The notes: a model not told the origin generated them from the letters alone. Positions 20,204-45,527 are shown, counted from the stretch's first letter. The stretch is DNA of 64,000 nucleotides from an uncultured delta proteobacterium (GCA_963755905.1 CAVWLM010000002.1:160754-224753), one strand, 5' to 3'. A program made the numbers and translations.

Positions 20204-20225
20204 TTAACGCCGCCGCGTTTTCCGG

Positions 20226-23171: not shown

Positions 23172-23189
23172 GGTCTGGACGGGGGGTTC

Positions 23190-24523: not shown

Positions 24524-24651
24524 CGCGTGGCCTTTTCGGCGGCCACGCAGGAATTGCCGCACGGGCGGCCTTGTCGCATCATGTAGCCAGTGACATAGTG
24601 CGATGATAAGCATCAGCGCAGTTCAATAAACGCAATTCCGGCATAGCACGC

Positions 24652-25469: not shown

Positions 25470-25637
25470 GCCTGTATTTTCAATGATTTCGTCCTGTTCC
25501 TTGGGCTTATCGTAGAGTGTAGACTCGCCTCCGGATCAAGGGTTGCGGATGTGACGATTCGCGAACTGACCCGCAGGCGGCGCACAATCAAATCCTCCGT
25601 ACAGCCGCGTTCCTCTCGACCAGCGCGATCGCGCTAT

Positions 25638-26630
25638 ATGGCCTATGGGCTCGCGATTGATTCCGATCTGTCGCTGCCCCAGTTGGAAGCGACGCGCGGT
25701 CAATCCTGGCCGTTTCTGCTGGGGAAACTACGTATACGAGTGCGGCGGCAGGAGGCGCGCGAGCCGCAGGAGTGGCTGCTTCAGACCAGCCTCCCCGACG
25801 GGCAGCCGTGGATGTGGGCGGCACGCCAAGAGCGCGGCTTTCTGATCCGCTACTTCGGTCTGGCTGATTTCATAGTGAATTCGAGGGGTACGGAGATCGT
25901 TCTCACGCGCGCCGAACCGGTAAGCTCGAGCGATACCGTGGGCCATCTGCTGCTGGATCATGCGCTTCCGATGGTTTTGGGCCTGCGCGGAATCCCGACG
26001 CTCCATGCCTCCTCGGTGGTGACCCCGCGCGGCGTGTGCGCTTTCGTGGGGACCACCGGAGCCGGCAAATCTACGCTCGCCGCAAGCTTTTCCGCCGCTG
26101 GATATCCAGCCTTGGGCGACGATTGCCTAGCGATAGCGGAGGACGGCGGATTTTTCGCCATCCCGGCATACCCGGGCGTACGCTTATGGATGGATTCCGC
26201 ACGATCATTGTCGACGGAATGGTCCAATGCGCCCACCGTTGCGCATTACACGAACAAGCTGCGTATTTTTGATGCGTCCGCCCTCAAGAACTTCCCCACG
26301 CGGCTCGAACCGCTGGCGGTCATCTATTGCCTCGCGCGCGATACGGCAGGCGTCGATCCAGGCGCGGCGTCGCCCTCGATCGAGCCGATGCAGCCCAAGG
26401 ACGCCTTTCTGGAACTGCTATCTGCCAGCTTCATGCTGGACATCACCGACAGCTCGGTGCTGACCCGCAACCTTCGCTTTATCGAGCGCTTGTTCAAGGT
26501 GGTGGCGGTACGGCGGCTCAAAATTCCCGAGGGATTTTCTTCATTGCCCAAAGTACGCGAGACGGTTTTCAACGACCTTGGTGTGCCGGCTCCCCGCGCC
26601 ACCTTCGGCGCGCCCCTCGGAGCTAGATAG
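25638..26630 (+). CDS. HPr-kinase (HprK C-terminal domain)-like serine kinase
   Basis: HASSVVTPRGVCAFVGTTGAGKSTLAASF is a P-loop in HprK-like context. Start taken at MAYGL; the ORF opens at 25551. Confidence 0.7.
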   Translation: MAYGLAIDSDLSLPQLEATRGQSWPFLLGKLRIRVRRQEAREPQEWLLQTSLPDGQPWMWAARQERGFLIRYFGLADFIVNSRGTEIVLTRAEPVSSSDTVGHLLLDHALPMVLGLRGIPTLHASSVVTPRGVCAFVGTTGAGKSTLAASFSAAGYPALGDDCLAIAEDGGFFAIPAYPGVRLWMDSARSLSTEWSNAPTVAHYTNKLRIFDASALKNFPTRLEPLAVIYCLARDTAGVDPGAASPSIEPMQPKDAFLELLSASFMLDITDSSVLTRNLRFIERLFKVVAVRRLKIPEGFSSLPKVRETVFNDLGVPAPRATFGAPLGAR

Positions 26631-26665
26631 GAGGCGGCCAATCGCGTACGCCCCTGGCGTCGTCG

Positions 26666-27931
26666 ATGCGCGTCATCAACCCGATCGCATCTCTTCTGAA
26701 ATCCGGTTCGGCGGTGAGCCGTGAGGCTGAACTGCTCATCTGTTGCTCGACCTCGGTCGCGACGCCCGAGCGCACGGCGCGTTTGCGCGCGATCGTTCAG
26801 AGCGGCGTCGATTGGCCTCTCGCCACGCGGATGGCGTTGGTACAGGCGGTACTGCCACTCGTCTATCGCTACCTGACTGCGGAGCTTGCCGACGCCTTGC
26901 CGGCCGATGCGGCCACGAACCTGCGCCGGGCTTATCAGGGTAACTCTTTGCGCAACCTCCATCTCGCGCGCGAGCTAATCCGATTGACCGCACTTTTGGA
27001 GCGGGGCGGCGTCGAGACGCTAGCGCTCAAGGGTCCGGCGCTGGCGATGACCGCCTACGGCAGTGTCGCGATGCGGCAGTTCACCGACCTTGACCTGCTG
27101 GTGCGCAAGAGCGCGGTGCCACGCGCGGTCGAACTACTACATAACGAGGGCTACGCGCTCCGCGAGGGGTTCGGCCTGGCTGACCTCGGGCGGCGCGACA
27201 CCTACGAAATTGCGCTCACGCGGGCGGACCGGCTGACCGAAATCGATCTTCACTGGAGACTTATCCTGCCGTATTTTCCGTTTTCGCTCGACAGCGAAGA
27301 TCTGTGGCGGCGTGCCGTGCGGGTGGAGATCGAAGGCGGCGCCGTGCGTACGCTCGCGCCCGCCGATCATCTGCTCTATCTATGCGTGCACGGCGCCAAG
27401 CATGGATGGCAAACGCTCGGCGGGATTTGCGATCTGGCCGGGCTGATTCGCGCTTCGTCGCAGGCATCATCGCAAGCATTCTCAATCGACTGGGATGAGC
27501 TCTCGGCACGCGCCGAGCGAGCCAGTGCGCCGCGGGCGCTGTGGCTCGGCACGCTTCTCGCGCATGAGCTGCTCGACGCCGCGGTGCCGGCCGGCGTGCT
27601 CGCCGCGGCTCGTCGCGAGCCCGCGGTGATCCGCGCCGCGCGCTGTTTCGTCGGTTACGTGAGCGACCCGGGCGACGATGGGCCGGGATTCTACCAGCGA
27701 TGGTCGGTGCCGCTGCGCGTAATCGCGGAACCCGGAGCGCGGCTCCACTACCTGGCGGCTCGCGCGCTGCTGCCGAGCGCCGACGATCGCGAATTTTTGC
27801 GCCTGCCGCCGGTGCTCCATCCCCTGTACTATCTACTGCGTCCGGTCAGGGTGGCTCTAAAGGAGGGTCCCGCCGTCCTACGCAGGCTTATGCGTTCGGC
27901 CCTACGGCCGGCAGATCATTCATCGCGGTGA
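26666..27931 (+). CDS. Nucleotidyltransferase-family protein (uncharacterised NTase, often lasso-cluster associated)
   Basis: Family call by overall similarity (LALKGPALA...FTDLDLLV...LHWRL) plus context. Confidence 0.55.
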   Translation: MRVINPIASLLKSGSAVSREAELLICCSTSVATPERTARLRAIVQSGVDWPLATRMALVQAVLPLVYRYLTAELADALPADAATNLRRAYQGNSLRNLHLARELIRLTALLERGGVETLALKGPALAMTAYGSVAMRQFTDLDLLVRKSAVPRAVELLHNEGYALREGFGLADLGRRDTYEIALTRADRLTEIDLHWRLILPYFPFSLDSEDLWRRAVRVEIEGGAVRTLAPADHLLYLCVHGAKHGWQTLGGICDLAGLIRASSQASSQAFSIDWDELSARAERASAPRALWLGTLLAHELLDAAVPAGVLAAARREPAVIRAARCFVGYVSDPGDDGPGFYQRWSVPLRVIAEPGARLHYLAARALLPSADDREFLRLPPVLHPLYYLLRPVRVALKEGPAVLRRLMRSALRPADHSSR

Positions 27932-29835
27932 GCAAAACCCTCGAAGCTTATATCCGCGCGTTGTTCGAGGTCGGACGAGCTCGAATCGCCGGTGCGATCG
28001 CATTGATGTTTCTTTTTTCGGTCAGCGAGGGTGTCGGGATCGCGCTGCTCCTGCCGATCCTCCAGGCCTCCGGCTTCGACCTCGGCGCGCAGGGCACGGT
28101 TGGGCGCTACGCAAGAGCTTTCGATTCCGCGCTTGACTCTGTCGGCTTCCATCCGAGCCTGCTGTTGCTGCTGATGGTGTTCGCGGGATTGGTCGGGGCG
28201 CGGGCGCTTCTGGGGCGTTGGCAGATAGTCGCGATGGTCTCGGTGCAGCAGAATTTCGGCGCCCGTCTGCGTCAGGGACTGTACCACGCGATCGCCAACG
28301 CCAACTGGCTCGCGCTTTCGCGGATGCGCTCGTCGGACCTGGCTCACGCGCTGACGGCGGAGATAGACCGGGTCGAAGCCGCGACCTTCGAAGTGCTTAG
28401 CCTCGCCTCCTCGGCGCTGCTGTTCCTGCTCTATCTTGCGATCGCGCTTGCGGTCTCGGCGGGGATGACAGCGCTCGCGCTAGGTTGTGGAATCGTCCTT
28501 GTCGCATTGCTGCGCGGACGCGCGGCGCTTCTGCGCGGCGCAGGCGCCGACTTGTCGGAGCGGACCAAGGGACTGTACCGCGCCACGGTCGAGCATCTGC
28601 AGAGTCTCAAGGCAGCCAAAATGTACGGCCTGCAGGAGCGCAATGCCGAATCCTACGCGACGCTCAGCCGCGAGGTCTCCCGAGCCGGCGTCGATATCGA
28701 GCGCCAGCAGGCCGCCACCAACTCGCTCTTCGAGATTGGTTCGGTCGTGATCCTGGCTGCCGTGCTCTACGTCTCGATTCGCGTGCTGGGGGTCGCTCCG
28801 TTCGCGGTGCTGTTGCTGCTGGCGATGTTCGCGCGCGTGATGCCGCGCGTCATTCAATGCCATCAACTGTACCAGGAGTGCATGCATGCGCTGCCCGCGT
28901 TCGAGAACGTAAACGATCTGGCCGGGCGTTGCGCAGCGATGGCCGAGCCGGCGATCGTTCTCGCTCACGCGCTCGAATTTCGAAATTCGCTGAAGCTCGA
29001 GGGTGTCTCGTTCTCGTATCGGCGCGCGAATGACGCCGCATCCGCCAACCAGTCTGACCAATCGAGCCAATCTCCCCAATGGTCTCCCGCTCAATCCAAA
29101 AATCCGCCCGCGGTGCGCGATCTCGACCTGACGGTGCGTCTGGGTGAGGTCGTGGCGCTGGTCGGTCCTTCGGGTGCGGGCAAGAGCACGATTGCCGATT
29201 TGATGACGGGTTTGTTGCCGCCTGATTCGGGAAACGTCACAGTCGACGGCGTTGTGCTGGACGAAACCCGTGCGCGCGCTTGGCGCGAGCAGGTAGGTTA
29301 TGTCTCGCAAGACACCTACCTCTTTCACGACACTGTGCGGGCCAATCTGCTGTGGGCAAGGCCGCAGGCGAGCGAGGCCGAATTGCGCGAGGCGCTCGGC
29401 CTCGCCGCGGCGCAACAATTCGTCGACGCTCTGGCGGAGGGACTCGACACGGTAATCGGCGAGCGGGGCTCGTCGATTTCGCACGGTGAGCGCCAGCGTA
29501 TCGCGCTCGCGCGGGCGCTGTTGCGCCGGCCTCGTTTGCTCATCCTCGACGAGGCGACCAACAGCCTCGACGCGCACAACGAGCAGCGAATCCTTGACGC
29601 GATCGAACGGCTACGTGGCGATCTGACCATCGTGATGATCGCGCATCGGATTGCGGCCGTGCGGCGGGCCGACCGGATCAACGTAGTGGACGGCGGTTCG
29701 ATCGTGGAATCGGGGAGTTGGAATGAACTATGCGCTCGAGAGCATGGGCGCTTTCGAGCGTTATGCGAGAGCCAGGGAATCGCACCCGTGCCGCTGGCCC
29801 CGGCGGCGCCTCCGTCAATAGGCCGTCTGGCATAA
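27928..29835 (+). CDS. ABC transporter, fused permease/ATPase exporter (lasso McjD-like)
   Basis: Six-TM domain followed by an NBD (GPSGAGKST Walker A, ILDEATNSLD Walker B, IAHR H-loop). GTG start overlapping the upstream stop. Confidence 0.8.
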   Translation: MSKTLEAYIRALFEVGRARIAGAIALMFLFSVSEGVGIALLLPILQASGFDLGAQGTVGRYARAFDSALDSVGFHPSLLLLLMVFAGLVGARALLGRWQIVAMVSVQQNFGARLRQGLYHAIANANWLALSRMRSSDLAHALTAEIDRVEAATFEVLSLASSALLFLLYLAIALAVSAGMTALALGCGIVLVALLRGRAALLRGAGADLSERTKGLYRATVEHLQSLKAAKMYGLQERNAESYATLSREVSRAGVDIERQQAATNSLFEIGSVVILAAVLYVSIRVLGVAPFAVLLLLAMFARVMPRVIQCHQLYQECMHALPAFENVNDLAGRCAAMAEPAIVLAHALEFRNSLKLEGVSFSYRRANDAASANQSDQSSQSPQWSPAQSKNPPAVRDLDLTVRLGEVVALVGPSGAGKSTIADLMTGLLPPDSGNVTVDGVVLDETRARAWREQVGYVSQDTYLFHDTVRANLLWARPQASEAELREALGLAAAQQFVDALAEGLDTVIGERGSSISHGERQRIALARALLRRPRLLILDEATNSLDAHNEQRILDAIERLRGDLTIVMIAHRIAAVRRADRINVVDGGSIVESGSWNELCAREHGRFRALCESQGIAPVPLAPAAPPSIGRLA

Positions 29836-29948
29836 GCTGGAAATCCTGATTCCCGAAGCGCGTCGGCATCCAGGCGCGCAATCATTGGAAGAGGCGAGCG
29901 GAGTCTTTTCGGCCAATCAGTCCTTTATCCGGTCGGAGCGGCTGTCGC

Positions 29949-31370
29949 TTAGCCCAGGTGCGGTACCGATCCGGGTGCCGCCTCGAGCACGGCCGCACGC
30001 CACTCGCGCTTGATCGGCAGGATCGGTGGCATCGGCGCAAAATCCGGCTCCGGCGTAGGCGCGGCGATCGAATCGATGTTCAAGGTGCGCGAAGCTTTCC
30101 GCATGAAGAGATTATAGATCAGCCATTGCGCGCGATGCCGCCTGCCGCGCAACGGAAATCGGCTGGCCATCGAAGACGCCGAATAAAAATTTGCGTAAGC
30201 GCGCTCCAGGCCGATACGAAGCTCGTCCGCCGACATCTGCGCCGGCTGAAATACGACGTGGCCTTGATCGTACATCGTCCAGTCGAAGGAAACGATTCGG
30301 TTCGCCTTCTTCATCTCGTACCAGGTGAGCGTGCCCGGATAGGGCGTGAGCGCCGAATAGGCACAGGCATCGAATTTGGCGCCGACATTGAAGGCGACCG
30401 TTTCGTCGAAGACCGATCGATCGTCGCCGTCGAAGCCATACATGAACAACCCGAATACCATGATCCCGTATGAATGCACTTTCTCGACCAACGCGGCGAA
30501 GGTCTCGGGCCGATTGACGTGCTTGTGTACGCTTTCGAGCGTCGCGCGTGCGATCGACTCGAAGCCGATGCTCAACATCGTGCAACCGCTTTCGGCGGCG
30601 AGCTCGAGCATGCGATCGTCCTGCGCCAGTTTAGAGGTGACGCCGGCTTGCCATTGGATGCCGCGTCCTTTCAGCGCACGCATCACTTCCTTGGGACGCT
30701 CCGAGGTGCCGAAAAAGTCAGCGTCGTTGATCGAGACCGTGCGCGAGCCGCAGTTCTCCATCTCGTAAATGACCTCATCGACCGGCCGATAGCGGAATTT
30801 CAGGCCGTTCATGAGCGGTTCGGCGCAGAAAGTGCAGCCCTGGTGGCAGCCGCGCGAAGTCTGAACAAAGGTGCGGTTCACGTAACGGTTCTTTTTCAGC
30901 AAATCGTAACGCGGCATCGGCATCCCGGCCATCGGATGCAACGTATCCGACTTATACGTGCCTCGCATCGAGTGCTGCTCGAGGTCATCGAGCAGCTTTC
31001 CGATAACGAACTCGACCTCGCCGATAACGACGGCATCGCAATGCTTCAGCGCTTCCTGCGGCATGAAGCTTGGATGCACACCGCCCATCGCGACGGGCAC
31101 GCCTTTGGCGCGGAATCGGTCCGCGATTTCATAGCCGCGATTGACGTAACTGGTCATCGCGGAAATCCCGACGAGGTCCGCTTTCAAATCGAAATCGATC
31201 GTTTCGATGTTTTCGTCCGTAAGCACCACTTCGTACTGGTCCCGCGGAATGGACGCGGCGACCGCGAGTAAGCCTGCGAGCGGAGAATAGAGTGCGCGGT
31301 TCATGTATACCGGCCGAGTGGTAACAGAATCGGTCTTCGGATTAATAAGATGAATGATGCGAGTGCGCAC
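29949..31370 (-). CDS. B12-binding domain radical SAM protein
   Basis: N-terminal B12-binding region (DLVGISAMTSY) and SRGCHQGCTFCAE, a CxxxCxxC motif. GTG start with a GGAGA RBS. Confidence 0.8.
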   Translation of the reverse strand: MRTRIIHLINPKTDSVTTRPVYMNRALYSPLAGLLAVAASIPRDQYEVVLTDENIETIDFDLKADLVGISAMTSYVNRGYEIADRFRAKGVPVAMGGVHPSFMPQEALKHCDAVVIGEVEFVIGKLLDDLEQHSMRGTYKSDTLHPMAGMPMPRYDLLKKNRYVNRTFVQTSRGCHQGCTFCAEPLMNGLKFRYRPVDEVIYEMENCGSRTVSINDADFFGTSERPKEVMRALKGRGIQWQAGVTSKLAQDDRMLELAAESGCTMLSIGFESIARATLESVHKHVNRPETFAALVEKVHSYGIMVFGLFMYGFDGDDRSVFDETVAFNVGAKFDACAYSALTPYPGTLTWYEMKKANRIVSFDWTMYDQGHVVFQPAQMSADELRIGLERAYANFYSASSMASRFPLRGRRHRAQWLIYNLFMRKASRTLNIDSIAAPTPEPDFAPMPPILPIKREWRAAVLEAAPGSVPHLG

Positions 31371-31933
31371 TAGGTTCTCCTGTACTTACTATCCGAAGTT
31401 ATAGCCACTAGCGGGTATCGATAATTGCAGAGAAAAAGACCCATCGCTTCGGTTGCCCAGACTCTCACTCCCAAAGAATCCATCGAGGACGTATGAGAAT
31501 TTATCAGATTGCCAGTCGGTCCGATACCGAGCGCTCGAAGTGTGAAGCCTGGAAGCTTTAGGGGACGACGATCAGGCGAGCGATAAATATGCGACGTTCG
31601 GATAATTTGACAGTTATCCGTGAAGTGTCCATGAACAGTCCGGATTCCGGCACTACCTTAACGCGCTTCAAAGCGTATGGAAGGAAGAATTTTATACCCG
31701 GAATTAATTACACGGGGAGCATCAATTGCGGGTCGCCCGTAGTTGAGAAAAGGGCGCAAGTTCCATCTCCCACAGAACAAATACGCGCTGGCACAGTGTG
31801 TGCGTTCTCACCGAAACGAACGTCGAGTCACTACGAATCATCGGGTGACAAGCCAGGCGATTTGTCTGCATCCGCTTTAATCGAATCGGATGCGGAAAGT
31901 TTGTTCAGAATCCGCGGTTAGCCGCGGGAGGAG

Positions 31934-32158
31934 ATGAGACCGATGAAATATCCAAACAGGTTCGTTCGAATTCTTTTAAGCGCAACCGTATGTTTCGCGA
32001 TGGCAGGATGCTTTTCCTACAGCAAAGAGGAAAGCACCGCGGTTCCGACCGTCGAGACGCCTGCGACGACCTCGTCGACTACGACTACAACCACGGTTCC
32101 GGACACCAGTACGACGATAGAGAAGCGTACTACCACGACATTTCCCAGCAATCCGTAG
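31934..32158 (+). CDS. Small Thr-rich lipoprotein
   Basis: Lipobox FAMAGC followed by TTSSTTTTTTVPDTSTT. GGGAGGAG RBS. Confidence 0.5.
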   Translation: MRPMKYPNRFVRILLSATVCFAMAGCFSYSKEESTAVPTVETPATTSSTTTTTTVPDTSTTIEKRTTTTFPSNP

Positions 32159-32257
32159 CTCGTCGCTGGAATGTGAGCGAGCGGCACTTGCTGGATATCG
32201 AGGCCGAGCATCGCGTTGGTGTTACAGGTGCGCGGCGCTTTGCGGGAGTGAAGTGAG

Positions 32258-32683
32258 ATGAGGGATACCAGCAATCACAGTTGGCAGCGATCGCTTGCGG
32301 TACGGCTGATACTCGGCGGGATGGGCGTCAGCGGGATGACCGTCACTATGGTGAGCGCGCGTGCCATAGCCCAGACGACCGTGAACAGCGAGAGTATGCA
32401 TCAAGAGAACCTGTCAGCGCATAGCGTCGAGAGTCATCACTATGCCTCGCCGGCGGATCGCGCGCGGGATGCGCTGTTGATTGTGAAGGTCAAGGCCGCG
32501 ATTGCCGATGAGGGGCTGGCTGATAACTATCCGCTGACCGTCGACGCCGATCATGGGAGAGTGACTCTTACTGGCGTCCTCGCTTCTCCCCAGGACGTGC
32601 GGCGCGCGGTCACCCTGGTGGCCAGGATTGACGGCGTGACGGGCGTGAACAACCGGCTAACGTGGCAGAAAGGTCCGCAGTGA
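32258..32683 (+). CDS. BON-domain protein (OsmY-like)
   Basis: VKAAIADEGLADNYPLTVDADHGRVTLTGVLASPQDVRRAVTLVARIDGVTGVNNRL is a BON domain. Confidence 0.7.
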   Translation: MRDTSNHSWQRSLAVRLILGGMGVSGMTVTMVSARAIAQTTVNSESMHQENLSAHSVESHHYASPADRARDALLIVKVKAAIADEGLADNYPLTVDADHGRVTLTGVLASPQDVRRAVTLVARIDGVTGVNNRLTWQKGPQ

Positions 32684-32754
32684 CGTCCAGGAACAAACGC
32701 GCAAGAGATCAGCTAATCCGAGCGAGCGGTTGCCGCTCGGCTAAGGAGAGTCCA

Positions 32755-33108
32755 ATGAAATCCCCAATTCTCAAGGTTCTGTCGGCGGCCCTCGGTCTAA
32801 GTGCTTTGCTGGCGGCAGGATGCGTCAGCCATGAGGAGAAGACCACGGCCTATGTACCGCCCGCTCCGGTGGCGGTTGTACCGGCGCCAACCGTGGTGGT
32901 GACCGCGCCGCGGCCCGCCCCGGCGAGCGTCCAGCCTGACGTCAGCTCCACCAGTCAGACCACCGAAACATACAACGCCACAAGCTCCGACAACGCGTCC
33001 AATCCCAGTGGCGACAGCACCACAACCAGCTATCGGCAGCACAGTGAGTCGAGCACGGTTAAAACAGTGCCGGTTCCTCCTCCGCCTTCGGTCACCACAA
33101 TTTACTAG
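32755..33108 (+). CDS. Ser/Thr/Pro-rich lipoprotein
   Basis: MKSPILKVLSAALGLSALLAAGC lipobox. AAGGAGAG RBS. Confidence 0.55.
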   Translation: MKSPILKVLSAALGLSALLAAGCVSHEEKTTAYVPPAPVAVVPAPTVVVTAPRPAPASVQPDVSSTSQTTETYNATSSDNASNPSGDSTTTSYRQHSESSTVKTVPVPPPPSVTTIY

Positions 33109-33388
33109 AAGCGCGAACAGGCCTAATCCCCGGCGCAGTGAACAAGACGCTGCGTTACGATCCGTCGGTTGCGACGTGGCGCCGGATGGTCCGGCGTCAT
33201 GTCACGCTCGATGGCGTCGATTTGCGCTCGGCCGGCTTGAAGCGCGAATCGCATTGGAAGATTTGATAACCTGCTTTTCGGATTTGAGGATCGACAGGAG
33301 CCGCAACATTTCCTTCCGTCGAACACCTCATTTCGTGGGCCCCAGGAGCTTTGGGTCCGAGCTCGATCTGGGAATTGCAGGTAACGGC

Positions 33389-34075
33389 ATGCGCGCCGCG
33401 GAACGCGATAAGTTGTTGTTGACTCTGGCGATCACTTCGGGTTCCGCCGACGGATGGAGCTACATGGGACTGGGGCATGCCTTTGTAGCTAATATGACCG
33501 GAAATACGGTGCTGCTGGGTATCGCGACATTCGGTGAACGTCTCAATCTATTACCTCCGTTGATTTCGCTGGTGTGCTACGCAGCCGGAGTCGCTATCGG
33601 ATCCTTGGTCACTCGCAAGGTAAAGCAGAGTTCGATCTGGTCGAAGTCCATTTCCCTGGTCCTGTTTTTTGAATTTCTTCTGTTGGTCGCGGCAGAGGCA
33701 ACATGGATCAGATCCGGAGGAAGGCCGAATCCGATGACGAAAGCCCTGCTGCTCGGCGACGTTGCCACAGCCATTGGACTTCAGAGCGGCGCTATGTTGC
33801 CGCTTAAGCTGCCAGGCATCATTACCACTTACATCACAGGCACCTGGACCACGCTGGTGAGCGGCCTTGTGTTGATGGGCAGCGGACAGGAACGTGTGCA
33901 CGGTAACCAGGCCGCCTTCGAGGATCGTCTCATAATTCAGATTGTATTCCTGGTCATTTACTTCTTATCGGCGGTGGCGACAGGATGGATCTTCCGTTAT
34001 AAGCCGGAGTTAGTAGGGGTAATAGCCTCGACTCCGATCCTGGTCGTCGTGGCTTACGGAGCGTTGCGGAATTAG
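33389..34075 (+). CDS. DUF1275 (YoaK-like) membrane protein
   Basis: Multi-TM. GWSYMGLGHAFVANMTGNTVLLGIA matches the DUF1275 N-terminus. Confidence 0.6.
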   Translation: MRAAERDKLLLTLAITSGSADGWSYMGLGHAFVANMTGNTVLLGIATFGERLNLLPPLISLVCYAAGVAIGSLVTRKVKQSSIWSKSISLVLFFEFLLLVAAEATWIRSGGRPNPMTKALLLGDVATAIGLQSGAMLPLKLPGIITTYITGTWTTLVSGLVLMGSGQERVHGNQAAFEDRLIIQIVFLVIYFLSAVATGWIFRYKPELVGVIASTPILVVVAYGALRN

Positions 34076-34247
34076 CTTGTGACTCGAGCGTTCCAGCCGC
34101 TCTTTCCTCGCACGATGCCTCCGCGGCTTGCCCCCTTGCGCGGCTAGATTCCGTCTTTGCGCGACACCTCGTCGCTCCAGCTTCGCGATGAAGGACTGAG
34201 AGGGACTCGACTCTGGCTCATCCGCGGATCGTTAGGCGGGCCGCGAC

Positions 34248-35432
34248 TTGACGTCGAGTTCGATGAGCGGCTACGAATCGGATGTTTTGAAAGTCAGCAA
34301 AGACATTCCGGAGCAATCGACCGGCTGCCATCGGAATTCGGAGCGATATTTCAAGCCCCTGATGTATCTGCTTGCCGCGTTGGCGGCATACGTGAGTGGG
34401 GCCAACATGCATTTGGGCTACGCCTATGCAGCGGATGCACCCGCGCAGGCTGGCCTGACCGTGCCCCAGGTCAATTCGCTACTGACCCCACCCGGTCGGG
34501 ACGGCGAGAAGGTCCCGATCCAGGTCGCGTTGGACGTTATCAATTTGTCCGACATAGATGAGGTCACTCAGCGTTTCAGGGTCGTAGCCTACCTGCTGGC
34601 TAAATGGACGGATCCCCGCCTCGCGTTCACTCCAAAGGCCGCATGGGAGAAATTTCGAGTTTATCACCCTGACGAAGTATGGACGCCGCATTTCGATTTC
34701 GCCAACGGCGTCGTGCCGCACTCCGCGTCTGACGTCACCCTGCGGGTCTTTCCCGATGGGACGGTCAAATATTTCGAACGTTCCAGCGCCGAGCTTTCCA
34801 ATAGTTTTCATCTTCGCCGTTTTCCATTCGATCGGCAGCGCCTGGAAATACTTATTCATCCGCCGCTCAGCGAAGCCGCGCTGGTACATTTCCTCGGCAC
34901 AGCCAATGGACCGTCGATTAGTGTGGAGAGACGAGTCTATTCGTCTCTGGCGGAATGGGCGATCGTAGGAATCCTGGCAAATGCCGAACTAATTCCCGTA
35001 TTCGGCACGGACACCACAAGCCAGATGCGATTCACAATCCAGGTCAAACGAAAGTTCAACTTCTATATATGGAAGGTATTCTTCCCCTTGCTACTCATGG
35101 TGCTCCTTTCGTGGACAGTCTTCTGGATCGACAGCTCGGAGCTAAGCAGTCAGGTTACTATCTCGGTCACGACGGTTCTCACCGTTATCGCCTTCGCATT
35201 TGCGATCTCGACCAACTTGCCGAAGGTTCCATACCTGACCTTTATCGACGTGTTTTTCTTGAGCTGCTACGTGTTTGTCTTTATCACAGCCATCGAACTC
35301 ACCCTGGTACACCTCGCCGGTCGGAGCAAACGCGACAAGATGGGAGAAGCTATTCGGCGCTTCAGCAGGATCGGCTTGCCCGTGCTATTCGTCCTCACCA
35401 ACCTGCTGACGATCGCGGTCTACTTCGGTTAG
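34248..35432 (+). CDS. Pentameric ligand-gated ion channel (prokaryotic Cys-loop receptor family)
   Basis: Extracellular LBD motifs (VINLSDIDEVTQRFRVVAYLLAKWTDPRL) followed by four TM helices. A probable signal peptide starts at M 34362. Confidence 0.75.
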   Translation: MTSSSMSGYESDVLKVSKDIPEQSTGCHRNSERYFKPLMYLLAALAAYVSGANMHLGYAYAADAPAQAGLTVPQVNSLLTPPGRDGEKVPIQVALDVINLSDIDEVTQRFRVVAYLLAKWTDPRLAFTPKAAWEKFRVYHPDEVWTPHFDFANGVVPHSASDVTLRVFPDGTVKYFERSSAELSNSFHLRRFPFDRQRLEILIHPPLSEAALVHFLGTANGPSISVERRVYSSLAEWAIVGILANAELIPVFGTDTTSQMRFTIQVKRKFNFYIWKVFFPLLLMVLLSWTVFWIDSSELSSQVTISVTTVLTVIAFAFAISTNLPKVPYLTFIDVFFLSCYVFVFITAIELTLVHLAGRSKRDKMGEAIRRFSRIGLPVLFVLTNLLTIAVYFG

Positions 35433-35680
35433 TTGCGACGCGCACGGCGCGCTGGCTTCGCGAACAAGGAGGAACGCTATGAGGCCGCGGATCGGCATCA
35501 AAAGACTGACCCGCGCGATCGAAGCTGAGGTGAGAGGAATGAGGTCGTCGGCGTCTCGGGCGAATATTAGTTGAGAGCGATGCACCGTCGTTGCATTACG
35601 CCATACCAAGTGATTGATCAGGGTGGGGATCAAGCCGAAAAGACTTCGCAATGCTCGAACACGTTGGGGGGAGAACGCGT

Positions 35681-36832
35681 ATGCGCCCGTGCATAATCAT
35701 ACCAGGGATTCAGGGTTCCGCACTACAGAATGTGTATCCGCTCTCGCCGCTAACGACCTGGTCTACTTTGACTATCGTCGGGGAAAAGTTCGCAGCGCCT
35801 GATTTCGACAGTCTAGCGCTCGATGACGCTGCGATGGCGGACCGTGATGAGCACGTCGTCAGCCGACCGTCACAATTGCTCGAAATCGCGTACGGACCGC
35901 TGACCCAGGCGCTTCAAGGACGGCTGGACGTGCCGGCGTATCTGTTTCCATATGACTGGCGCTATTCGATCGCGCAGAGCGCGCAGGCGCTGGTTCAATA
36001 TGTCAACCGTTTGAAGTTAAAGTCGATGCCGTCAGTTCAAAAATGGGACGGCCTGTTTGATTTCGCGGTTCACAGCATGGGAGGCCTTGTTCTGAGGGCT
36101 TTTCTGGACGCCTGGCAAAGATCGGGCGCAGCGCCGTTACCCATCGGACAGATCTGTTTTATAGCAACGCCGCATCTCGGCGCGCTCGACGCGGCCGTGG
36201 CGCTGATCAGCGGTGAGACGCCATTGTTCGGCGGCTACAAAGAATTGCGAAAGCTCGCAAGGACTTTCCCCGCAGTATATGAGCTTCTACCTCGTTTTCC
36301 CAATGCGATAGTGCGAGCCGGAGCGCCGATCGATATCTTCGACGTGAAGAACTGGCAAAAGAATACCGTGGATCCTGACGTCGGCAATAGTGGATTCGAC
36401 GTTGAACCGGTTCATCTAATCGCCGCGAAAAGAGTCCTGACAACGCTGCCACTGCCGAGTGACCCGCCGTTCAAGATTCTTCCCGGCGATCAGCTTGTGA
36501 TCTTCGGTAATAAACCCAACGCGGTAATGGTTGAGGTCCAGGTGGGACCGGCCCCGGACTGCTGGTACGACTTCGATGGTGCGACCAAGGGCGCCGGCGA
36601 CGATGTGGTGCCAGTGCAGTCGGCGCGGCTCGCGGGTGTATCGTCGGTGGAGATTCAGGAAGACGATGTTTCTTATTTCCACCCGGTCGAGCGCGGTATG
36701 GCCTCATCCGATATGCACGCGTTTCTTCCTGCGCTCGACGAGGTCGCGACGATCGTCGCGCGATTCTTTCAGGGAGAGCGGGGGCTGGACCTGCTGCCCA
36801 AAGGCCTGCCGAGCTCTAGATTCCATCCCTGA
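35681..36832 (+). CDS. Alpha/beta-hydrolase lipase (LCAT/PGAP1-like)
   Basis: AVHSMGG is a GxSxG nucleophile elbow. Confidence 0.55.
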   Translation: MRPCIIIPGIQGSALQNVYPLSPLTTWSTLTIVGEKFAAPDFDSLALDDAAMADRDEHVVSRPSQLLEIAYGPLTQALQGRLDVPAYLFPYDWRYSIAQSAQALVQYVNRLKLKSMPSVQKWDGLFDFAVHSMGGLVLRAFLDAWQRSGAAPLPIGQICFIATPHLGALDAAVALISGETPLFGGYKELRKLARTFPAVYELLPRFPNAIVRAGAPIDIFDVKNWQKNTVDPDVGNSGFDVEPVHLIAAKRVLTTLPLPSDPPFKILPGDQLVIFGNKPNAVMVEVQVGPAPDCWYDFDGATKGAGDDVVPVQSARLAGVSSVEIQEDDVSYFHPVERGMASSDMHAFLPALDEVATIVARFFQGERGLDLLPKGLPSSRFHP

Positions 36833-37381
36833 CGCTGGGACTTTGCCGCTCTACAAGGAGCAAGAGCCGATAGCCCGGACCGCAGATCTCTCCTAACTCG
36901 AGCACGTGTTCTTGAATCTCGCCTGAGCGCGGAGCCATCGAAATCTGGCACCGCGACTATAACTTTGCGACCGCATGGCAGTCTCGGCGCCTTCACGCCA
37001 AACGAGTTCGCGATGCTCCAGGGACACGAACTACAACCTCGAGTTTTCAATATAGACGAGCGACCCGGCCTCTAAAGTCATACGAACTTTCTGATTGTCT
37101 TCGGAGCATATGAATAAGGTAGGAGTCAAAAAGGTCTATTTGGCGACAAGGCGTAAAATAGGAGGTTTTAATTCTTTATTTAAGAGTGAAACCTGCAAAA
37201 ATGTCAAACGTACTAAGGTGAGCAAAAATGAGCGAGCCATAGAAGATCAGCTGAATACGGATGACCACTGATAGAGGTGGGCTTTGTGACGACTTGAGTC
37301 GCAGACATTCGGTACGGCTCAGTCCAAAGGGTCTGTCTCAACACCGCAGACCAACCACCTCAAAATTAAGGCGTAGTCCCG

Positions 37382-38470
37382 ATGATTTACGAGGGACGAA
37401 TTCCATCGTTGGACGGTCTGCGTGGTATAGCCGCGATAGCGGTGGTTGGCTTCCATTACAACATCTTCTTTCTACCGCAGGCTCGGCTGCCGTTTGTCGG
37501 TCGGGGATATCTCGCAGTCGATTTCTTCTTCCTGCTCAGCGGCTTCGTGTTGGCACACGTCTATGGACGTGAGCTTGCGTCCGATTGGCGGTCGCATTGG
37601 CAAAAATTCGCGATGGCGCGTTTTGCCCGCATCTACCCCCTATTCGCCCTTACAACGATAGTTATGGCGACGATTCACCTGTCCGGCGCACCGCTAAGGC
37701 TGGTTTTGTTTTCCGGCCGGTCGCTGATGCTTCAACCATTTCTACTGCAACAATGGTCTGGCCTAAGTTGGAACTACCCATCCTGGTCAATCAGCACCGA
37801 AGCCGAAGCCTACGTCTTTTTCGTCATCTTTGCCGGCCTGCTCGTCAAGGGAAAACATCCAGGCCTGATCGGTGTATGCTGTGTCGTCATTTTGACTACG
37901 CTTTGCATCACTAAGGACGGAGATCTGAATCTCTACAGCGGAATTCCCGCTCTGCTCCGCACACTAGTCGAATTTTCGTTTGGGGTTCTTCTTTATCGCG
38001 CCCATTCGAACTACAAGGGATTCGCGGCCGGATGGGTAGGAATTCTCGCTATTCTGTTCTTCGGCTTGGCAATGAAAACGAAACTGGATTTCTTAGCCTT
38101 GGGTGCGTTTGCCAGTCTCATTTACTATAGCGTCAACGCGACCGACGGGTTTGCAAGGCTGCTAAACTCTCGTCCCTCAGTGGCCCTCGGCAACTGGTCG
38201 TATTCAATTTATCTTTGGCACGCGCCAATCCAATACGCTGTCATGGTCGTATTTGCCGCCAGTGGCTATCCGGTTAGCAATCTCAACGTTTCAAGTGCAA
38301 GATTGTTGGCATTGGCGACGATTTTGGTTGTTGTGCGGCTGTCGGCTTACAGCTACCGATCCTTTGAGGCTCCAGCACGTCGCTTTTTAACGCAATCGCT
38401 AACGAGAACCTCGTCCGGAGTGCTGACGCCGATGCAAACCGATCAGATGAACCGCTACCCGCTTCGATAA
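37382..38470 (+). CDS. Acyltransferase family 3 (OafA/YrhL-like O-acyltransferase)
   Basis: LDGLRGIAAIAVVGFH...LAVDFFFLLSGFVL is the AT3 signature; about 10 TM helices. Confidence 0.8.
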   Translation: MIYEGRIPSLDGLRGIAAIAVVGFHYNIFFLPQARLPFVGRGYLAVDFFFLLSGFVLAHVYGRELASDWRSHWQKFAMARFARIYPLFALTTIVMATIHLSGAPLRLVLFSGRSLMLQPFLLQQWSGLSWNYPSWSISTEAEAYVFFVIFAGLLVKGKHPGLIGVCCVVILTTLCITKDGDLNLYSGIPALLRTLVEFSFGVLLYRAHSNYKGFAAGWVGILAILFFGLAMKTKLDFLALGAFASLIYYSVNATDGFARLLNSRPSVALGNWSYSIYLWHAPIQYAVMVVFAASGYPVSNLNVSSARLLALATILVVVRLSAYSYRSFEAPARRFLTQSLTRTSSGVLTPMQTDQMNRYPLR

Positions 38471-38539
38471 CGGCCTAAGCGGGCCATGATGTAACTTCGA
38501 CCATCGACGACGAGAGCAAGGAGGGTCCAGGAATGAAGA

Positions 38540-39399
38540 TTACGACGGTTGGTGGCGGCGCCATGGCGAACCCGGCTTTGACCGCGGTATTGGGACGCTT
38601 GCCAACTATCATCGATGCTAACGAGACGCTGCCGATCTTGCCCACGACGACCACCGTGGTGAGCGCCGCCAGCGCCAGCCAGTGCTTTCCCAGCAGTTAC
38701 GGATCGACGAGCATCCCGACCGAGACGAAAAAGATCGCGGCGAAAATGTCGCGCACCGGCTCGATCAAGTGCTCAACTTGCACTCCCTGTCCCGACTCGG
38801 CAACCAGCGAGCCGGCCAGAAATGCGCCGAGCGCGACCGTGTTAGCCCGCCCGTTCGGCGATCGTCGCGAAGGCGAAGCACAGCCCCAGGCTCGCAATCA
38901 AGAGCGCTTCCGGCCGATTGAACCGCGCGATCCCACGCACCACGAAAGGGACGGTGATCAATCCGACCGCAATCAGCACAACTACAAATGAACTCAGGAG
39001 GCCCGCGGTGATCGAGAACGCGTGAAGCGACTCTCTAGTCCCGTTAGACATAGTAATCAGCACCGCCAGCAGTAAGATCGCGACCACGTCCTCGCACAGC
39101 ACTATGCCGAAGACCAGCTCGCGCACGCTGGGGTCCACCTTCACCTCTTCGAAGGCCTTGGCCACGATGACGGCCCCGGAAATCGAGACCATCGCGCCAG
39201 TCAACAGGCTTTCCCACGGGGTCCAGCCCATCAGGCGCCCCACCAGATGGCCGAGCCAGACCATCGAAACGACCTGAACCACGGCGACCAATCCGGCGGT
39301 GGGAGCAAGGCGTATCAGCCGACTAAACCTGAACTCCAGGCCGATCGCGAAAACCAGCAGGATGACACCAAGATCCGAGACGAGCTGGACCCGTTCCAT
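38540..39399 (-). pseudogene. Decayed cation:proton antiporter (CPA2/Kef-type) remnant
   Basis: Kef-like TM segments (LVFAIGLEF..., AAIFFVSVGMLVDP | LLGKHWLALAAL...) are spread across three reading frames. The gene is truncated at both ends. Confidence 0.55.
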
Positions 39400-39439
39400 G
39401 TTGGCGTACACCCCGGGCACATGTGGCCCGACCACAATC

Positions 39440-39600
39440 CCGCATGGCCTACGGTATTCGTTCGCGTCTGCCCTGATCGCAGCAGGCAGGCGGGTCACCG
39501 AAGTGCAATCCATCCTCGGACATAGCTCTCCCGCAATCACGCCTGGGGGTTTATGCGCACTGGTTCCGAGCCACCAAACCACCGCGATGGATACCGTCGT
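39440..39600 (+). pseudogene. Tyrosine-recombinase (phage-type integrase) C-terminal remnant
   Basis: LRYSFASALIAAGRRVTEVQSILGHSSPAIT matches the integrase box II region. The catalytic Tyr context is degenerate and there is no intact upstream domain. Confidence 0.45.
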
Positions 39601-39735
39601 CCGGTCTCTTCTTTTCCCGGATTCGGCACGGAGGCAAAAAGTGGGCACTAGAACGACGACACCGGCCAACGTTCAACCTCCTAGCCGACTGCGCGCATCT
39701 CATAAACTTGCGAAATGACTGCGGAATTTTCAAGT

Positions 39736-39816
39736 TGCGAGAGGGGGGACTTGAACCCCCACGCCTTGCGGCACCGGATCCTAAGTCCGGCGCGTCTGCC
39801 ATTCCGCCACTCTCGC
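39736..39816 (-). tRNA. tRNA-Leu (anticodon UAG)
   Basis: Cloverleaf folded by hand: GCGAGAG acceptor, anticodon loop CTTAGGA, long variable arm, GGGGG-TTCAAGT-CCCCC T-arm. Closely resembles E. coli tRNA-Leu. Confidence 0.85.
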
Positions 39817-39857
39817 GCAGATGAGAACTTATTGTAGATCTCCGCTGGTATCGATAC

Positions 39858-41390
39858 CTAGTTCGAGACAGCTTTGAATAGTACGGCAAGGTCATGCCGT
39901 ACAATCTTGCCCATTGCATTTTTGGGCAACGAGGAAGTGATCCGAATCACTTTCGGAACTTTGAAGTCGGCCAGGCGTGAGCGGCAGAAGGCTTCGATCT
40001 CGTTCTCGTTGGCGGAGCTTTTGAGTACTACCGCCGCCCATACCTCCTCGCCGTACTTAGTGTCCGAGACTCCAAAGACTGCCGCCTCGGCCACCGCGGG
40101 ATGCTCCAGCAGGACAGCTTCCACTTCCTTTGGTGAAATTTTTTCTCCGCCCCGGTTGATCATCTCCTTGATGCGTCCGGTCAGGCTGAGGTAGCCGGCA
40201 TTATCAAGAACTCCGATGTCGCCGGTGCGAAACCAGCCTTCGACAAAGGCGGCGGCATTAGCTTCGGGATTATCGCGATAGCCGTGCATCACGCTGGGGC
40301 CGCGGATGACCACTTCGCCCGCAGTGTTCGCGGGAAGCTGTTTGCCTGCTTCGTCGATGGTTGCGATCTCGACCCCTGTTGCGAGTCCAACGGTCCCGGA
40401 CTTATGCGGGTGGGGCGGGAGAGGATTGGAGGCCGCCTGATGCGCCGTCTCGGTCATCCCGTATGCTTCCAGCACCGGGGCGCCAAAGCGTTTCTCGAGA
40501 TTCGCAAGAACAACGGGCGCGAGCGCCGCGGAACAGGAGCGGATGAATCGCGGGCCATGATCTGGCGCGCCGTCGCCATCCGCCCGCAACAGAAGCACCT
40601 GATGAATGGTCGGCACTGCCGTAAACCAGGTGGCATGATGCTCGCGGAAAAGCGGCCAGAAACCTGAAGCGGCAAAACGTGGTGGCACGATCAGTGTGCC
40701 TCCCGAAGCCAGCGTGGACAACGCGGCCCCAATCAGCCCGTGGCCGTGAAAGAGCGGCATGACCACCAGGCTGCGATCTTCGGGCTGCAAGGCGTAGTGG
40801 GCGGCAATAGTTGTCGCCGAGCAAGAGACGTTGCGGTGTGTAAGCGGAACGCCTTTTGGCTGCCCCGTAGTACCACTGGTGTACATCAGCAGCGCTACAT
40901 CGTCAGGCTTCGGGGCTTCGGCGTTTAACCGCGAGGAAGCCGCCAGGTTTACCAGCTCCACGACCCCGGTAGGCGCCAGACGTGGCTGCCATACCGGCAG
41001 CGACAGGGCGGCTGCCGCTTCCGCCGCCCCGGAATCACTGTTTTCGGCAACGACCGCTTTGGCTTGTCCGGCGGCAATCAGATAGCGCAATTCGGCACCT
41101 TTGTTTGCCGGGTTTATCGGCGCCGCCACCAGCCGCGCCCGCGTCAGCGCGAGAAAGATGACCAGGAACTCGACGCCGTTCGGCAGTACCATCACGACCA
41201 CATCGCCAGCCTTGAGACCGGCGCCGACGAATTGCGACGCAAGTCTCTCAATCTGATCGGCCAGTGATTTGTAGCTGACGACGAGTCCGGGAGCCGGTGC
41301 TATGATTGCGGCCGCGGAAGACTCGGGTTCCGTCAGCAACTGCTCGAGAGTCGTGCGTAACTCCATACTCGGGTCGGGTTCCTCCTTCAA
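39858..41390 (-). CDS. AMP-dependent synthetase/ligase (acyl-CoA synthetase family)
   Basis: YTSGTTGQPKGV AMP-binding motif. Ends 4 nt downstream of oxc. Confidence 0.8.
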   Translation of the reverse strand: MKEEPDPSMELRTTLEQLLTEPESSAAAIIAPAPGLVVSYKSLADQIERLASQFVGAGLKAGDVVVMVLPNGVEFLVIFLALTRARLVAAPINPANKGAELRYLIAAGQAKAVVAENSDSGAAEAAAALSLPVWQPRLAPTGVVELVNLAASSRLNAEAPKPDDVALLMYTSGTTGQPKGVPLTHRNVSCSATTIAAHYALQPEDRSLVVMPLFHGHGLIGAALSTLASGGTLIVPPRFAASGFWPLFREHHATWFTAVPTIHQVLLLRADGDGAPDHGPRFIRSCSAALAPVVLANLEKRFGAPVLEAYGMTETAHQAASNPLPPHPHKSGTVGLATGVEIATIDEAGKQLPANTAGEVVIRGPSVMHGYRDNPEANAAAFVEGWFRTGDIGVLDNAGYLSLTGRIKEMINRGGEKISPKEVEAVLLEHPAVAEAAVFGVSDTKYGEEVWAAVVLKSSANENEIEAFCRSRLADFKVPKVIRITSSLPKNAMGKIVRHDLAVLFKAVSN

Positions 41391-41394
41391 TTAC

Positions 41395-43107
41395 TCACTT
41401 CTTCGATACGACGCCGCTTTTGGGGTTGAGATTGCCGATATGGCCGCTTTCCGTGCCCACTTTCGGATCGATTACACAATTGATCAGCGCGGGTTTGCCA
41501 GAAGCCAGCGCGTCGGCGAGAGCGTTGGTGAGATTCTGCGGATTATCGACGTAATGACCAATGCCGCCAAAGGCTTCGATGAGTTTTTCGTAGTGCGCCT
41601 GCTTCATCAGGATTGTCGGCGCCGGGTCGCTGTCGCCGCCACGATTGACATCGTCGCCGCGGTAAATCCCGCCATTGTTGAAGACGATAACGACGACCGG
41701 CAGTTGATAGCGGCAAATGGTTTCGATTTCCATGCCGCTAAAGCCAAAGGCGCTGTCGCCCTCGATAGCCACTACTGGCTCACCGCTTACAACCGCTGCC
41801 CCGATCGCGTAGCCCATTCCAATACCCATTACGCCCCATGTCCCACTGTCCAGGCGCTTGCGTGGCAGCCGCATGTCGATGACATTGCGCGCGATGTCGA
41901 GGGTGTTTGCACCCTCGTTGACAAGATAGACCTCCGGCTTGTCGGCAAGCACGCCACGGATGGCGTTAAGAGCGCTGTAGAAGCCCATCGGATGAGGATT
42001 GGCCGCGAGCAGGGTTTTCATGCGCTCCTGGTTGTGCCGTTTGCGCTGCGCAAGTTCCTCCAGCCATTTAGGGTCAGGCTTGATCCGCCCGGGTTTGAGC
42101 ACCGCCAAAAGACTAGCCATGCAGGATGCGATATCTCCCACCACCGGCGCGGCTATGGGACGATTGCTATCCATTTCGGCCGGCATGATATCAATTTGAA
42201 CGAATTGCGCCGCAGATGAGAATTGGGGACTGTTGCCATGATTGAGAAGCCAGTTCAGCCGCGCGCCAATCAGCATCACAAGGTCGGCCTCGGCGAGCGC
42301 GAAAGATCGAGCGGCCGCGGCGGACTGCGAATGATCATCGGCCAGCAATCCCTTGGCCATCGACATCGGAATGAAAGGGATTCCGGTCTTCTCGATAAAC
42401 GAGCGAATGTCCGTGTCCGCCTGGGCATACGCAGCCCCCTTGCCCAGAATGATCAGCGGCCGTTTGGCCTGTCCGAGCAGGTCCAGCGCCCGCTCGATCG
42501 AATCGGACGCCGGGATCTGTCGGGGCGCCGGGTCGATGACGCGCACCAACGACCGCGCAGCGGTCTCGGCGTCGAGGGTCGCGCCTAAGACACTAGCTGG
42601 AAGATCGAGATAGACGCCGCCTGGACGTCCGGAGACCGCGGCACGGATCGCGCGCGCGACACCAATTCCGATGTCCTCGGGCCGATTGATCCGGTATGCA
42701 GCCTTCGCATACGGCTTGGCCGCGTTCATCTGATCGAGCTCTTCATAGTCGCCCTGCTGGAGATCGACGATGGCCCGATCGCTCGACCCACTTATCTGGA
42801 TCATGGGGAAGCTGTTGGTGGTGGCGTTTGCCAGCGCCACCATGCCGTTAAGAAAGCCGGGAGCGGAGACGGTCAGGCAAATACCGGGTTTCTGAGTAAG
42901 GTAGCCGGCGATCGCCGCCGCGTTTCCCGCGGATTGTTCGTGACGAAAGCCGATATAGCGAATGCCCTCGGCCTGAGCCAGCCGGGCCAGGTCCGTTATC
43001 GGGATGCCCGCCACGCCAAAGATCGTATCCAGACCGTTTAGCTTCATGGCCTCGATCACCAGATGGAAGCCATCGGTGATCGAGGGGGAGTTCGTTTCGT
43101 TCGGCAT
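41395..43107 (-). CDS. oxc: Oxalyl-CoA decarboxylase (TPP-dependent)
   Basis: Near-colinear identity blocks with Oxalobacter Oxc: [85 protein letters not shown]. Confidence 0.9.
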   Translation of the reverse strand: [570 protein letters not shown]

Positions 43108-43223
43108 GTGAATCGCCCTCGTGATTATAGGAATTTCGCCGGTATGCGCCGCCAAAGAACTATCCGAGGCCGGTCGCGAGCCCGGCCCGTGCGCGAGACG
43201 GCCGCGGAGGATTTGGTCGGCGC

Positions 43224-44476: not shown

Positions 44477-44713
44477 GCTCGAATGCTCCTCGCAACGTGC
44501 GAAATGGAAGTACAACCCTTCGGGCCGCTGGCCCGCTGATCCTGTCAGCCCTACGTTGCGCCTTGTTGGTCAGTCAATAGTGAGTTGTACCGACAGTAGG
44601 TGCATAAAAATTGCATGAATCTGTCTGGCACGCTAGAAGCGAAGTCGGCGGGCTATCGTGGTTCCAGGCAACTTTAAGATGGGGACGCCCAGCAGAACCA
44701 TGGCTGCCGAGGA

Positions 44714-45388: not shown

Positions 45389-45527
45389 AAGTCCGTGCCC
45401 AGGTCCGCAAGCGCAGCAATCGAGCCGTGAAGGGTAAGGCTAAAACGCCGAGACAGCGAAAGCGACAATGACCCGCCCGACGACCTGTACTCGGACGTCG
45501 AACAAATAGGAATTCAGGACTGGAAAT

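Follow-up and report, generated by a model that had tools for sequence, protein, structure and literature searches.

Decayed islands and cryptic prophage remnants are found at transfer RNA (tRNA) genes, leuX of Escherichia coli being an example, and in phage lambda the int gene reads toward attP. The stretch of DNA considered here (the window, 64 kb in length), whose closest genomes are Candidatus Binataceae metagenome-assembled genomes, contains a locus of a related kind. A tRNA-Leu(TAG) gene abuts the remnant of a tyrosine integrase and lies at the right-hand end of 9.9 kb of DNA of lowered GC content, which a reading of the sequence by itself had flagged as a single genomic island (29.9–39.8 kb). 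Like the islands at leuX, the locus is a lower-GC accessory region on one side of a tRNA-Leu gene, with a truncated integrase, pseudogenes, possible insertion sequence (IS) debris and variation between strains. Unlike them, it belongs to Binatota, involves the TAG isoacceptor, is small and carries cargo without an obvious coherent function.

The Islander database defines the genomic islands that occupy tRNA genes, or tDNA islands (Hudson, Lau and Williams, Nucleic Acids Res 2015, PMC4383910). The anticodon-centred attP class accounts for 2083 of its 3919 islands, the class with a 5′ tDNA fragment is rare (159 of 3919), and the filters applied demand both a displaced tRNA fragment and an intact integrase (PMC4383910). 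Our locus resembles these islands in that a tyrosine integrase adjoins the tRNA's 3′ end and the content of the site varies between strains. Relatives match the anticodon-centred class, carrying a regenerated tRNA together with a displaced 3′ fragment that extends to the anticodon loop. The window differs in having neither the displaced fragment nor an intact integrase; it would fail both filters, and is thus a remnant, at a site of a known kind, rather than an island in the strict sense.

We favour, with a probability of about 0.65, the view that this is the decayed and immobile remnant of an island at a recurrent tRNA-Leu(TAG) integration hot spot, and that its cargo is derived from integrated elements. 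The sequence-only reading, which proposed a tRNA-integrated element with a decayed integrase, survives in part: the tRNA 3′ end is a real integration site and the integrase has the appropriate geometry, but there is no attachment-site (att) repeat and the 9.9 kb are not a single island.

The integration site and its integrase

The tRNA gene is intact and lies on the minus strand, so that its 3′ end faces left, towards the variable segment, as had been proposed. An Rfam scan of 27–49 kb found nothing besides this gene. Scanning of a metagenome collection with the 3′ 50 nt of the tRNA identified 80 loci of relatives in which the 3′ half of the tRNA is identical. In one relative, L102, a complete tRNA is accompanied, 1.29 kb away, by a perfect copy of its 3′ half, 51 nt long, that runs from the 3′ end to the anticodon loop. 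In two other relatives, L213 and L214, the 51-nt half-tRNA sits 51 bp past the stop codon of an ABC transporter gene and precedes 10 kb or more of element DNA with a GC content of 0.49–0.61. These two strains are 98.5% identical through the ABC gene, the half-tRNA (11950–12000) and some 760 bp of element DNA, and have different content beyond; different or mosaic elements therefore occupy the tRNA-Leu site in near-identical strains. A 30-mer of the att sequence gave no match in a collection of viral contigs, and no phage or provirus contig with this att sequence was found there.

The corresponding repeat is missing from the window. No match to the 3′ half of the tRNA was obtained in 64 kb with a 30-mer allowing up to three mismatches, and blastn-short with the same half returned nothing above chance. 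Direct exact words of 11 nt or more were not found either, the few short matches being inverted or at the 5′ edge of the tRNA. The same tests recover the perfect 51-nt copy in L102, L213 and L214. The att repeat that had been predicted near 29–32 kb is accordingly absent, there and throughout the window, and as no displaced tRNA fragment is present the boundary of the element cannot be mapped precisely. Other flanking repeats, sought between 29.7 and 39.9 kb, amounted to short two-copy matches and were rejected as chance. The longest general repeat, 28 nt at 82% identity, pairs position 34993, inside a pentameric ligand-gated ion channel (pLGIC) gene, with position 39614, in the C-terminal tail of the integrase fragment; neither copy is in the tRNA.

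The arrangement at the tRNA is not an assembly chimera, since the population's four other assemblies (L205, L206, L207 and L210, the last from 3300079084) have it at 99.3–99.9% identity. Of these, L205 is a 1.76-Mb long-read contig, contig_3828 of ENA ERZ25039484, that crosses both tRNA junctions. In a further strain, L081 (98.9% identical, from sample ERZ27249652), the alignment with the window extends leftwards from 50766 and stops precisely at 39736, the final tRNA base, where L081 runs into unrelated sequence. The 45 nt of L081 beyond the tRNA (11031–11075) are not in the window; they resemble the start of an adenosine-specific-kinase-like gene that follows tRNA-Leu in L127 and L134; the window contains no homologue of that gene. 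The short-read contigs L081, L082, L210 and L001 all stop at or near tRNA-Leu, which is consistent with strain heterogeneity at this point.

The open reading frame fragment next to the tRNA 3′ end is the C-terminal part of a tyrosine integrase, as the sequence-only reading had recognised. Its Pfam Phage_integrase score is just below the cut-off of 27.1 bits and covers positions 126–162 of the 172 in PF00589. Its homology to an intact relative is clear: residues 331–405 of a 421-residue tyrosine integrase in L164 align with it in a tblastn search (E = 1e-17). The fragment is 73–86% identical to the integrases of L164 and L208, and less than 30% identical to the type found in L212 and L213. It does not hold the complete catalytic domain (R..K..HxxR..H..Y) in one frame, and the patch with the catalytic tyrosine motif (LGVYAHW, 39540–39578) is out of frame. 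A tblastn search with the intact L164 integrase revealed no further integrase pieces in the window.

The stop codon of the integrase fragment is 17 nt from the tRNA's 3′ end, and the intact integrase of L164, convergent with its tRNA, ends 20 nt from it, preceded by an HTH_17 excisionase-like gene and an HTH_3 gene. The longer contigs L208 and L209, found by means of the L164 integrase, have the same module, its integrase likewise convergent with the tRNA and ending about 20 nt short of it. In these three relatives an HTH_17 gene, an HTH_3 regulator and an integrase that reads toward the att site in the tRNA form a module similar to those of lambda type, and the window fragment shares the orientation and, approximately, the distance from the tRNA. 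The likeness ends there: phage structural genes were not seen in the vicinity of the intact integrases, and the excisionase and regulator genes are absent from the window. We conclude that an integrase of the L164 type once abutted this tRNA, and that some 330 of its codons, from the N-terminal end, have been lost along with its partner genes and the far copy of att. Lacking both an integrase and a second att site, the remnant cannot excise.

The loss has left a scar. At 39410–39428 the integrase fragment is joined head to head with a fragment of a CPA2-type Na+/H+ antiporter gene, which is on the opposite strand and truncated at its 5′ end. This join marks a deletion in which part of the original element, including its far end, was lost. 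The antiporter pseudogene matches the Na_H_Exchanger hidden Markov model (HMM) in two pieces (positions 25–227 and 232–334 of 375, scoring 105 and 52 bits); positions 1–24 and 335–375 are missing, so that both ends are cut. An in-frame premature stop is present at 38697–38699, and there is no full-length open Na_H_Exchanger domain. The gene had been described as frameshifted and truncated. Both truncations are real and the stop adds to them, but the frameshift, an extra T at 38842, is confined to this assembly, being absent from L205, L206, L207 and L210, and represents a private mutation or else an error of the consensus. The extra T aside, the assemblies do not differ over the stretch with the stop and the two truncations, which L205 and L210 span completely and L206 and L207 partially. 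The coordinates of these and the other features of the locus are collected in Table 1.

Table 1. Features of the tRNA-Leu(TAG) locus, in window coordinates
Feature	Position	Strand	Evidence	Remark
ABC transporter	27928–29835	+	ABC_membrane and ABC_tran	Conserved left anchor, convergent with tRNA-Leu
Radical S-adenosylmethionine (rSAM) indel block	29836–31880			rSAM gene and 0.5-kb AT-rich spacer (GC 0.49–0.52)
B12-binding rSAM enzyme	29949–31370	−	Pfam	
Lipoprotein	31934–32158	+	Signal peptide	
BON-domain protein	32258–32683	+	Pfam	
Lipoprotein	32752–33108	+	Signal peptide	
tRNA-abutting variable segment	33110–39735			6.6 kb, GC 0.53–0.57; cargo with low GC at third codon positions (GC3) and gene wreckage
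DUF1275 membrane protein	33386–34075 (inside 33008–34075)	+	PF06912, E = 7.6e-27	
pLGIC	about 34248/34263–35432	+	Neur_chan_LBD and Neur_chan_memb	
LCAT-like lipase/acyltransferase	about 35651/35681–36832	+	PF02450, E = 1.9e-11	
Possible IS transposase C-terminus relic (rve_3-like)	36900–37030	+	Weak hint	Two frames
Acyltransferase-3 membrane O-acyltransferase	37382–38470	+	PF01757, E = 5.4e-26	
CPA2-type Na+/H+ exchanger pseudogene	38535–39410	−	PF00999 on two pieces	
Tyrosine integrase C-terminal remnant	39428–39718	+	PF00589, 26.8 bits; tblastn	About 90 of about 421 codons
tRNA-Leu(TAG)	39736–39816	−	ARAGORN; Rfam RF00005, 60.3 bits	Attachment-site gene, intact
Second lineage-specific block, 5′ of tRNA	39818–48416			Absent in L215, L087 and L131

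The interval between the ABC transporter gene and the tRNA

The ABC transporter gene to the left of the flagged stretch is the last gene of a conserved PqqD/transglutaminase/NTP-transferase/ABC cluster. Between it and tRNA-Leu lies a hypervariable interval, which spans from 28 bp to at least 4 kb in relatives and 9.9 kb in the window. In 11 distant relatives, whose ABC protein is about 52% identical to that of the window, the ABC stop codon is 28 bp–2.2 kb from the tRNA 3′ end, and the gap contains nothing, an OmpA-like lipoprotein gene, or that gene and one other; one further distant locus gave no clean gap between the ABC gene and the tRNA. On both flanks a nearer relative, L215 (76–84% nucleotide identity), runs collinear with the window. 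Its equivalent of 25476–29812 is followed by a single hydrolase gene in a gap of 715 bp, the tRNA and then, after 118 bp, the equivalent of 48417 onward. By this comparison the window has 9.9 kb of extra DNA 3′ of the tRNA and 8.6 kb of extra DNA 5′ of it.

The closest informative relatives, L211 and L212, are some 80–89% identical to the window over 19383–29825, and they divide the 9.9 kb. Their alignment jumps from about 29800–29825 to 31880 and 31917, omitting the block with the rSAM gene. A lipoprotein–BON–lipoprotein trio then occupies the same position after the ABC gene, at 73–78% nucleotide identity, and homology ends at 33116 and 33104; beyond this point L212 has PGPGW, Usp and KatG genes (4 kb) and then tRNA-Leu. 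Since L211 and L212 share the trio, it is older content of the slot and not part of the recent segment, and since they have the trio and lack the rSAM block, that block is a separate indel. The flagged 9.9 kb are therefore a composite of an rSAM indel, the older BON trio and a tRNA-linked segment at 33.1–39.7 kb, which coincides exactly with the region of low GC3. About two-thirds of the stretch that had been taken for one island belongs to this segment. The claim that the island is absent from relatives holds for 33.1–39.7 kb, which is missing at this locus from L211, L212 and L215, and fails for 31.9–33.1 kb, which L211 and L212 possess.

It could still be supposed that all 9.9 kb were inserted as a unit at tRNA-Leu and that the integrase decayed later. 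Such an event would explain why the entire interval from the ABC stop codon to the tRNA is extra with respect to L215 and the distant relatives, and why the GC content falls directly past the ABC gene; moreover, the displaced half-tRNA of L213 and L214 is just past the ABC stop codon, where the end of such an insertion is expected. We nevertheless regard this as quite improbable. L211 and L212 have the trio but lack the rSAM gene, and other genes follow the trio there; the rSAM, BON and antiporter genes have GC3 values at the host level, the window has no att repeat, and the several internal truncation junctions point to several events.

Composition, cargo and origin of the tRNA-linked segment

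All the genes listed for the flagged stretch by the sequence-only reading, namely those for a B12-binding rSAM enzyme, two lipoproteins, BON and DUF1275 proteins, a pLGIC, a lipase and an acyltransferase-3, are present as judged by Pfam and signal peptide analysis. The last four of these proteins, two membrane proteins, an ion channel and two lipid- or acyl-modifying enzymes between them, suggest no single function. The DUF1275 protein is called with 228 residues in L205 and L210, and the pLGIC with 389 residues in L205. The exact acyltransferase protein occurs on L205, L206 and L207, each of which has the same arrangement over as much of the island as it includes. A putative cytochrome P450 C-terminal fragment at about 33.19–33.37 kb was not confirmed by Pfam and was dropped.

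Between the lipase and acyltransferase genes is an AT-rich spacer (36833–37400), with a GC content of 0.455 at 37.0–37.4 kb. Scraps of coding sequence in two frames within it (…IEIWHRDYNF… and …RPHGSLGAFTPNEFA…), spliced by hand into a 65-residue translation, match PF13683 with E = 4.9e-4 and 20.2 bits, below the cut-off of 26.5 bits; the unspliced frames match nothing. This is a weak hint of the dead C-terminus of an IS transposase.

Apart from the four assemblies of the same population, homologues of the cargo and of the antiporter were not found in the slot by tblastn among 217 fetched loci, and the cargo was likewise not found in the 80 loci with an identical tRNA 3′ half. The sole other matches to the cargo are distant DUF1275 homologues (34–36% amino acid identity) at unrelated positions in two loci.

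The mean GC content of the window is 61.2%. In 1-kb windows it is 0.64–0.67 at 27–30 kb, 0.50–0.61 at 30–40 kb and 0.59–0.62 to the right, and the drop begins directly after the ABC gene. The minimum in 2-kb windows, 0.533 at 36.5–38.5 kb, has z = −2.4 relative to the mean of 0.612. The fall in GC content, to 0.53–0.58 across 30–39 kb, is thus real, but the baseline is about 0.61 and not the 0.67 previously assumed, given the values of the right flank. The tetranucleotide distance has a maximum of only z = 2.1. Against a host GC3 baseline of 0.747 ± 0.051, from 39 genes elsewhere in the window, the values are 0.61 for DUF1275 (z = −2.7), 0.68 for the pLGIC, 0.64 for the lipase and 0.59 for the acyltransferase (z = −3.1, the lowest of the segment). 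These four genes have z values of −1.3 to −3.1, and their GC3 is lower than anywhere else in the window except in one other patch. A second stretch of low GC content, at 15000–18500 (GC 0.55), includes an amino-acid permease gene (GC3 0.63) and a carbon-nitrogen hydrolase gene (0.58), beside a TetR regulator gene. The rSAM gene (0.74), the BON gene (0.73) and the antiporter piece (0.74) are at the host mean. At the codon level, for which the sequence-only reading had proposed a windowed check, GC3 in the flagged stretch is low in the four cargo genes alone.

These values bear on whether foreign DNA need be invoked at all. Several of the cargo proteins are membrane-located, and the reduced GC content of the rSAM gene is due to codon positions 1 and 2 rather than 3, as might be expected if amino acid composition and weak expression were responsible and the proximity of the tRNA were a coincidence. 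In the four cargo genes the drop is at the third position, however, these genes are absent from the locus in all the relatives sampled, and the integrase remnant at the junction is homologous to intact tRNA-Leu-specific integrases. An account without foreign DNA is for these reasons very improbable indeed.

A more serious rival than the single island is the proposal that only the 0.3-kb integrase scrap is derived from a mobile element, and that 33.1–39.4 kb consist of ordinary accessory genes brought alongside it by deletion, rearrangement or IS activity. The fusion at 39410–39428 is indeed a deletion junction, the GC3 of the antiporter is host-like and there is a possible IS relic at about 36.9–37.0 kb. 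Moreover, the slot holds plainly non-mobile genes in relatives (those for an OmpA-like lipoprotein, KatG, Usp and a hydrolase), and the cargo of the window is unlike that of the intact elements in L208 and L209. We consider this proposal unlikely on balance. The four intact genes have the window's lowest GC3 outside the one other patch, the cargo is missing from the other fetched loci bar the distant DUF1275 homologues in two of them, and the elements of L213 and L214 share the GC drop (0.49–0.61), so that acquisition on an element remains the simplest source.

Several observations do weigh against the origin of the cargo from a tRNA-integrated element. No displaced tRNA fragment is present in the 64 kb, and the cargo next to the intact integrases of L208 and L209 has nothing in common with that of the window, so that the link between the cargo and elements of the L164/L208 type is circumstantial. 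The GC dip is modest, and a comparable one at 15–18.5 kb is free of mobile-element signatures. Furthermore, the antiporter, with its host-like GC3 of 0.74, could be a native gene placed beside the integrase by deletion; the genes on its left might then never have been part of the element that carried the integrase.

If the locus is nevertheless the remnant of an element-borne island, as we favour, its history may be envisaged as follows. Recombination by the tyrosine integrase of these elements would take place in the anticodon loop and duplicate the tRNA's 3′ 51 nt. In the lineage of the window, one or several elements of the L164/L208 type would have inserted with the integrase against the tRNA 3′ end, and the four low-GC3 genes would have come in on such an element or on several. 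Repeated integration at the intact tRNA would have displaced the older BON trio from it. Deletions would then have taken some 330 integrase codons, the excisionase and regulator module and the far att copy, fusing the remainder to the truncated antiporter gene, and further deletions, perhaps with an IS, would have trimmed the rest. The 6.6 kb between the trio and the tRNA would on this account be the fixed residue: four intact genes, a possible IS scrap and two pseudogenes. The arrival of the cargo on an integrase-borne element and the order of these events are the parts of the account that we infer.

The flanking regions and the meaning of the locus

The extra DNA 5′ of the tRNA forms a second lineage-specific block, with genes for an oxalate-CoA ligase, an oxalyl-CoA decarboxylase, a CoA-transferase, a 2OG-Fe(II) oxygenase and a nonribosomal peptide synthetase (NRPS)-like A-T-TE enzyme. 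In L215, L087 and L131, which do not have it, a DsbA-like gene (48503–49621 in the window) is about 120–260 bp from the tRNA; L103 and L126 retain only the NRPS-like gene. Both sides of tRNA-Leu are therefore variable. Comparison through the oxalate-CoA ligase in GTDB genomes showed a permuted gene order, with no relative having tRNA-Leu after the ligase; it was uninformative for the island, as was L084.

An integrase directly upstream (5′) of a complete and co-oriented tRNA-Leu is present in L212 (17702–18862), L113 (about 1645–2910), L162 and L163. The L212/L213 type of integrase is unrelated (less than 30% identity) to that of the window and L164. The upstream layout may represent islands of the rare class in which the tRNA is regenerated from its 5′ side. 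It is a tentative suggestion, and one we would not press, that the tRNA-Leu(TAG) of Binataceae is an unusually busy two-sided hot spot used by at least two unrelated integrase families. Were this true, the 8.6-kb oxalate-catabolism/NRPS-like block could have been delivered from the 5′ side.

The cluster to the left of the variable interval (24652–29835), which is also found in L211–L215, encodes a PqqD-like protein, a Transglut_core3 protein, a 359-residue protein, an NTP_transf_5 protein and the ABC transporter. The 359-residue protein has a faint match to AAA_18 (E = 0.006, below the cut-off). The cluster looks like maturation and export machinery for a lasso peptide or another ribosomally synthesised and post-translationally modified peptide (RiPP), and no asparagine-synthase-like cyclase was recognised in the scanned part of the window, approximately 20–41 kb. 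The rSAM gene that follows should not be taken to belong to the island nor, without further evidence, to this neighbouring RiPP-like cluster.

The stretch is an ordinary kind of genome scar, and its importance beyond annotation is small. For annotation, it separates recent accessory cargo, the DUF1275, pLGIC, lipase and acyltransferase genes, from the conserved context. It also identifies tRNA-Leu(TAG) as a hot spot for integration in Binatota, a little-studied phylum of uncultured soil bacteria, and the pair formed by the intact integrase and the 51-nt att core, both taken from relatives, could help to map islands in Binatota genomes.

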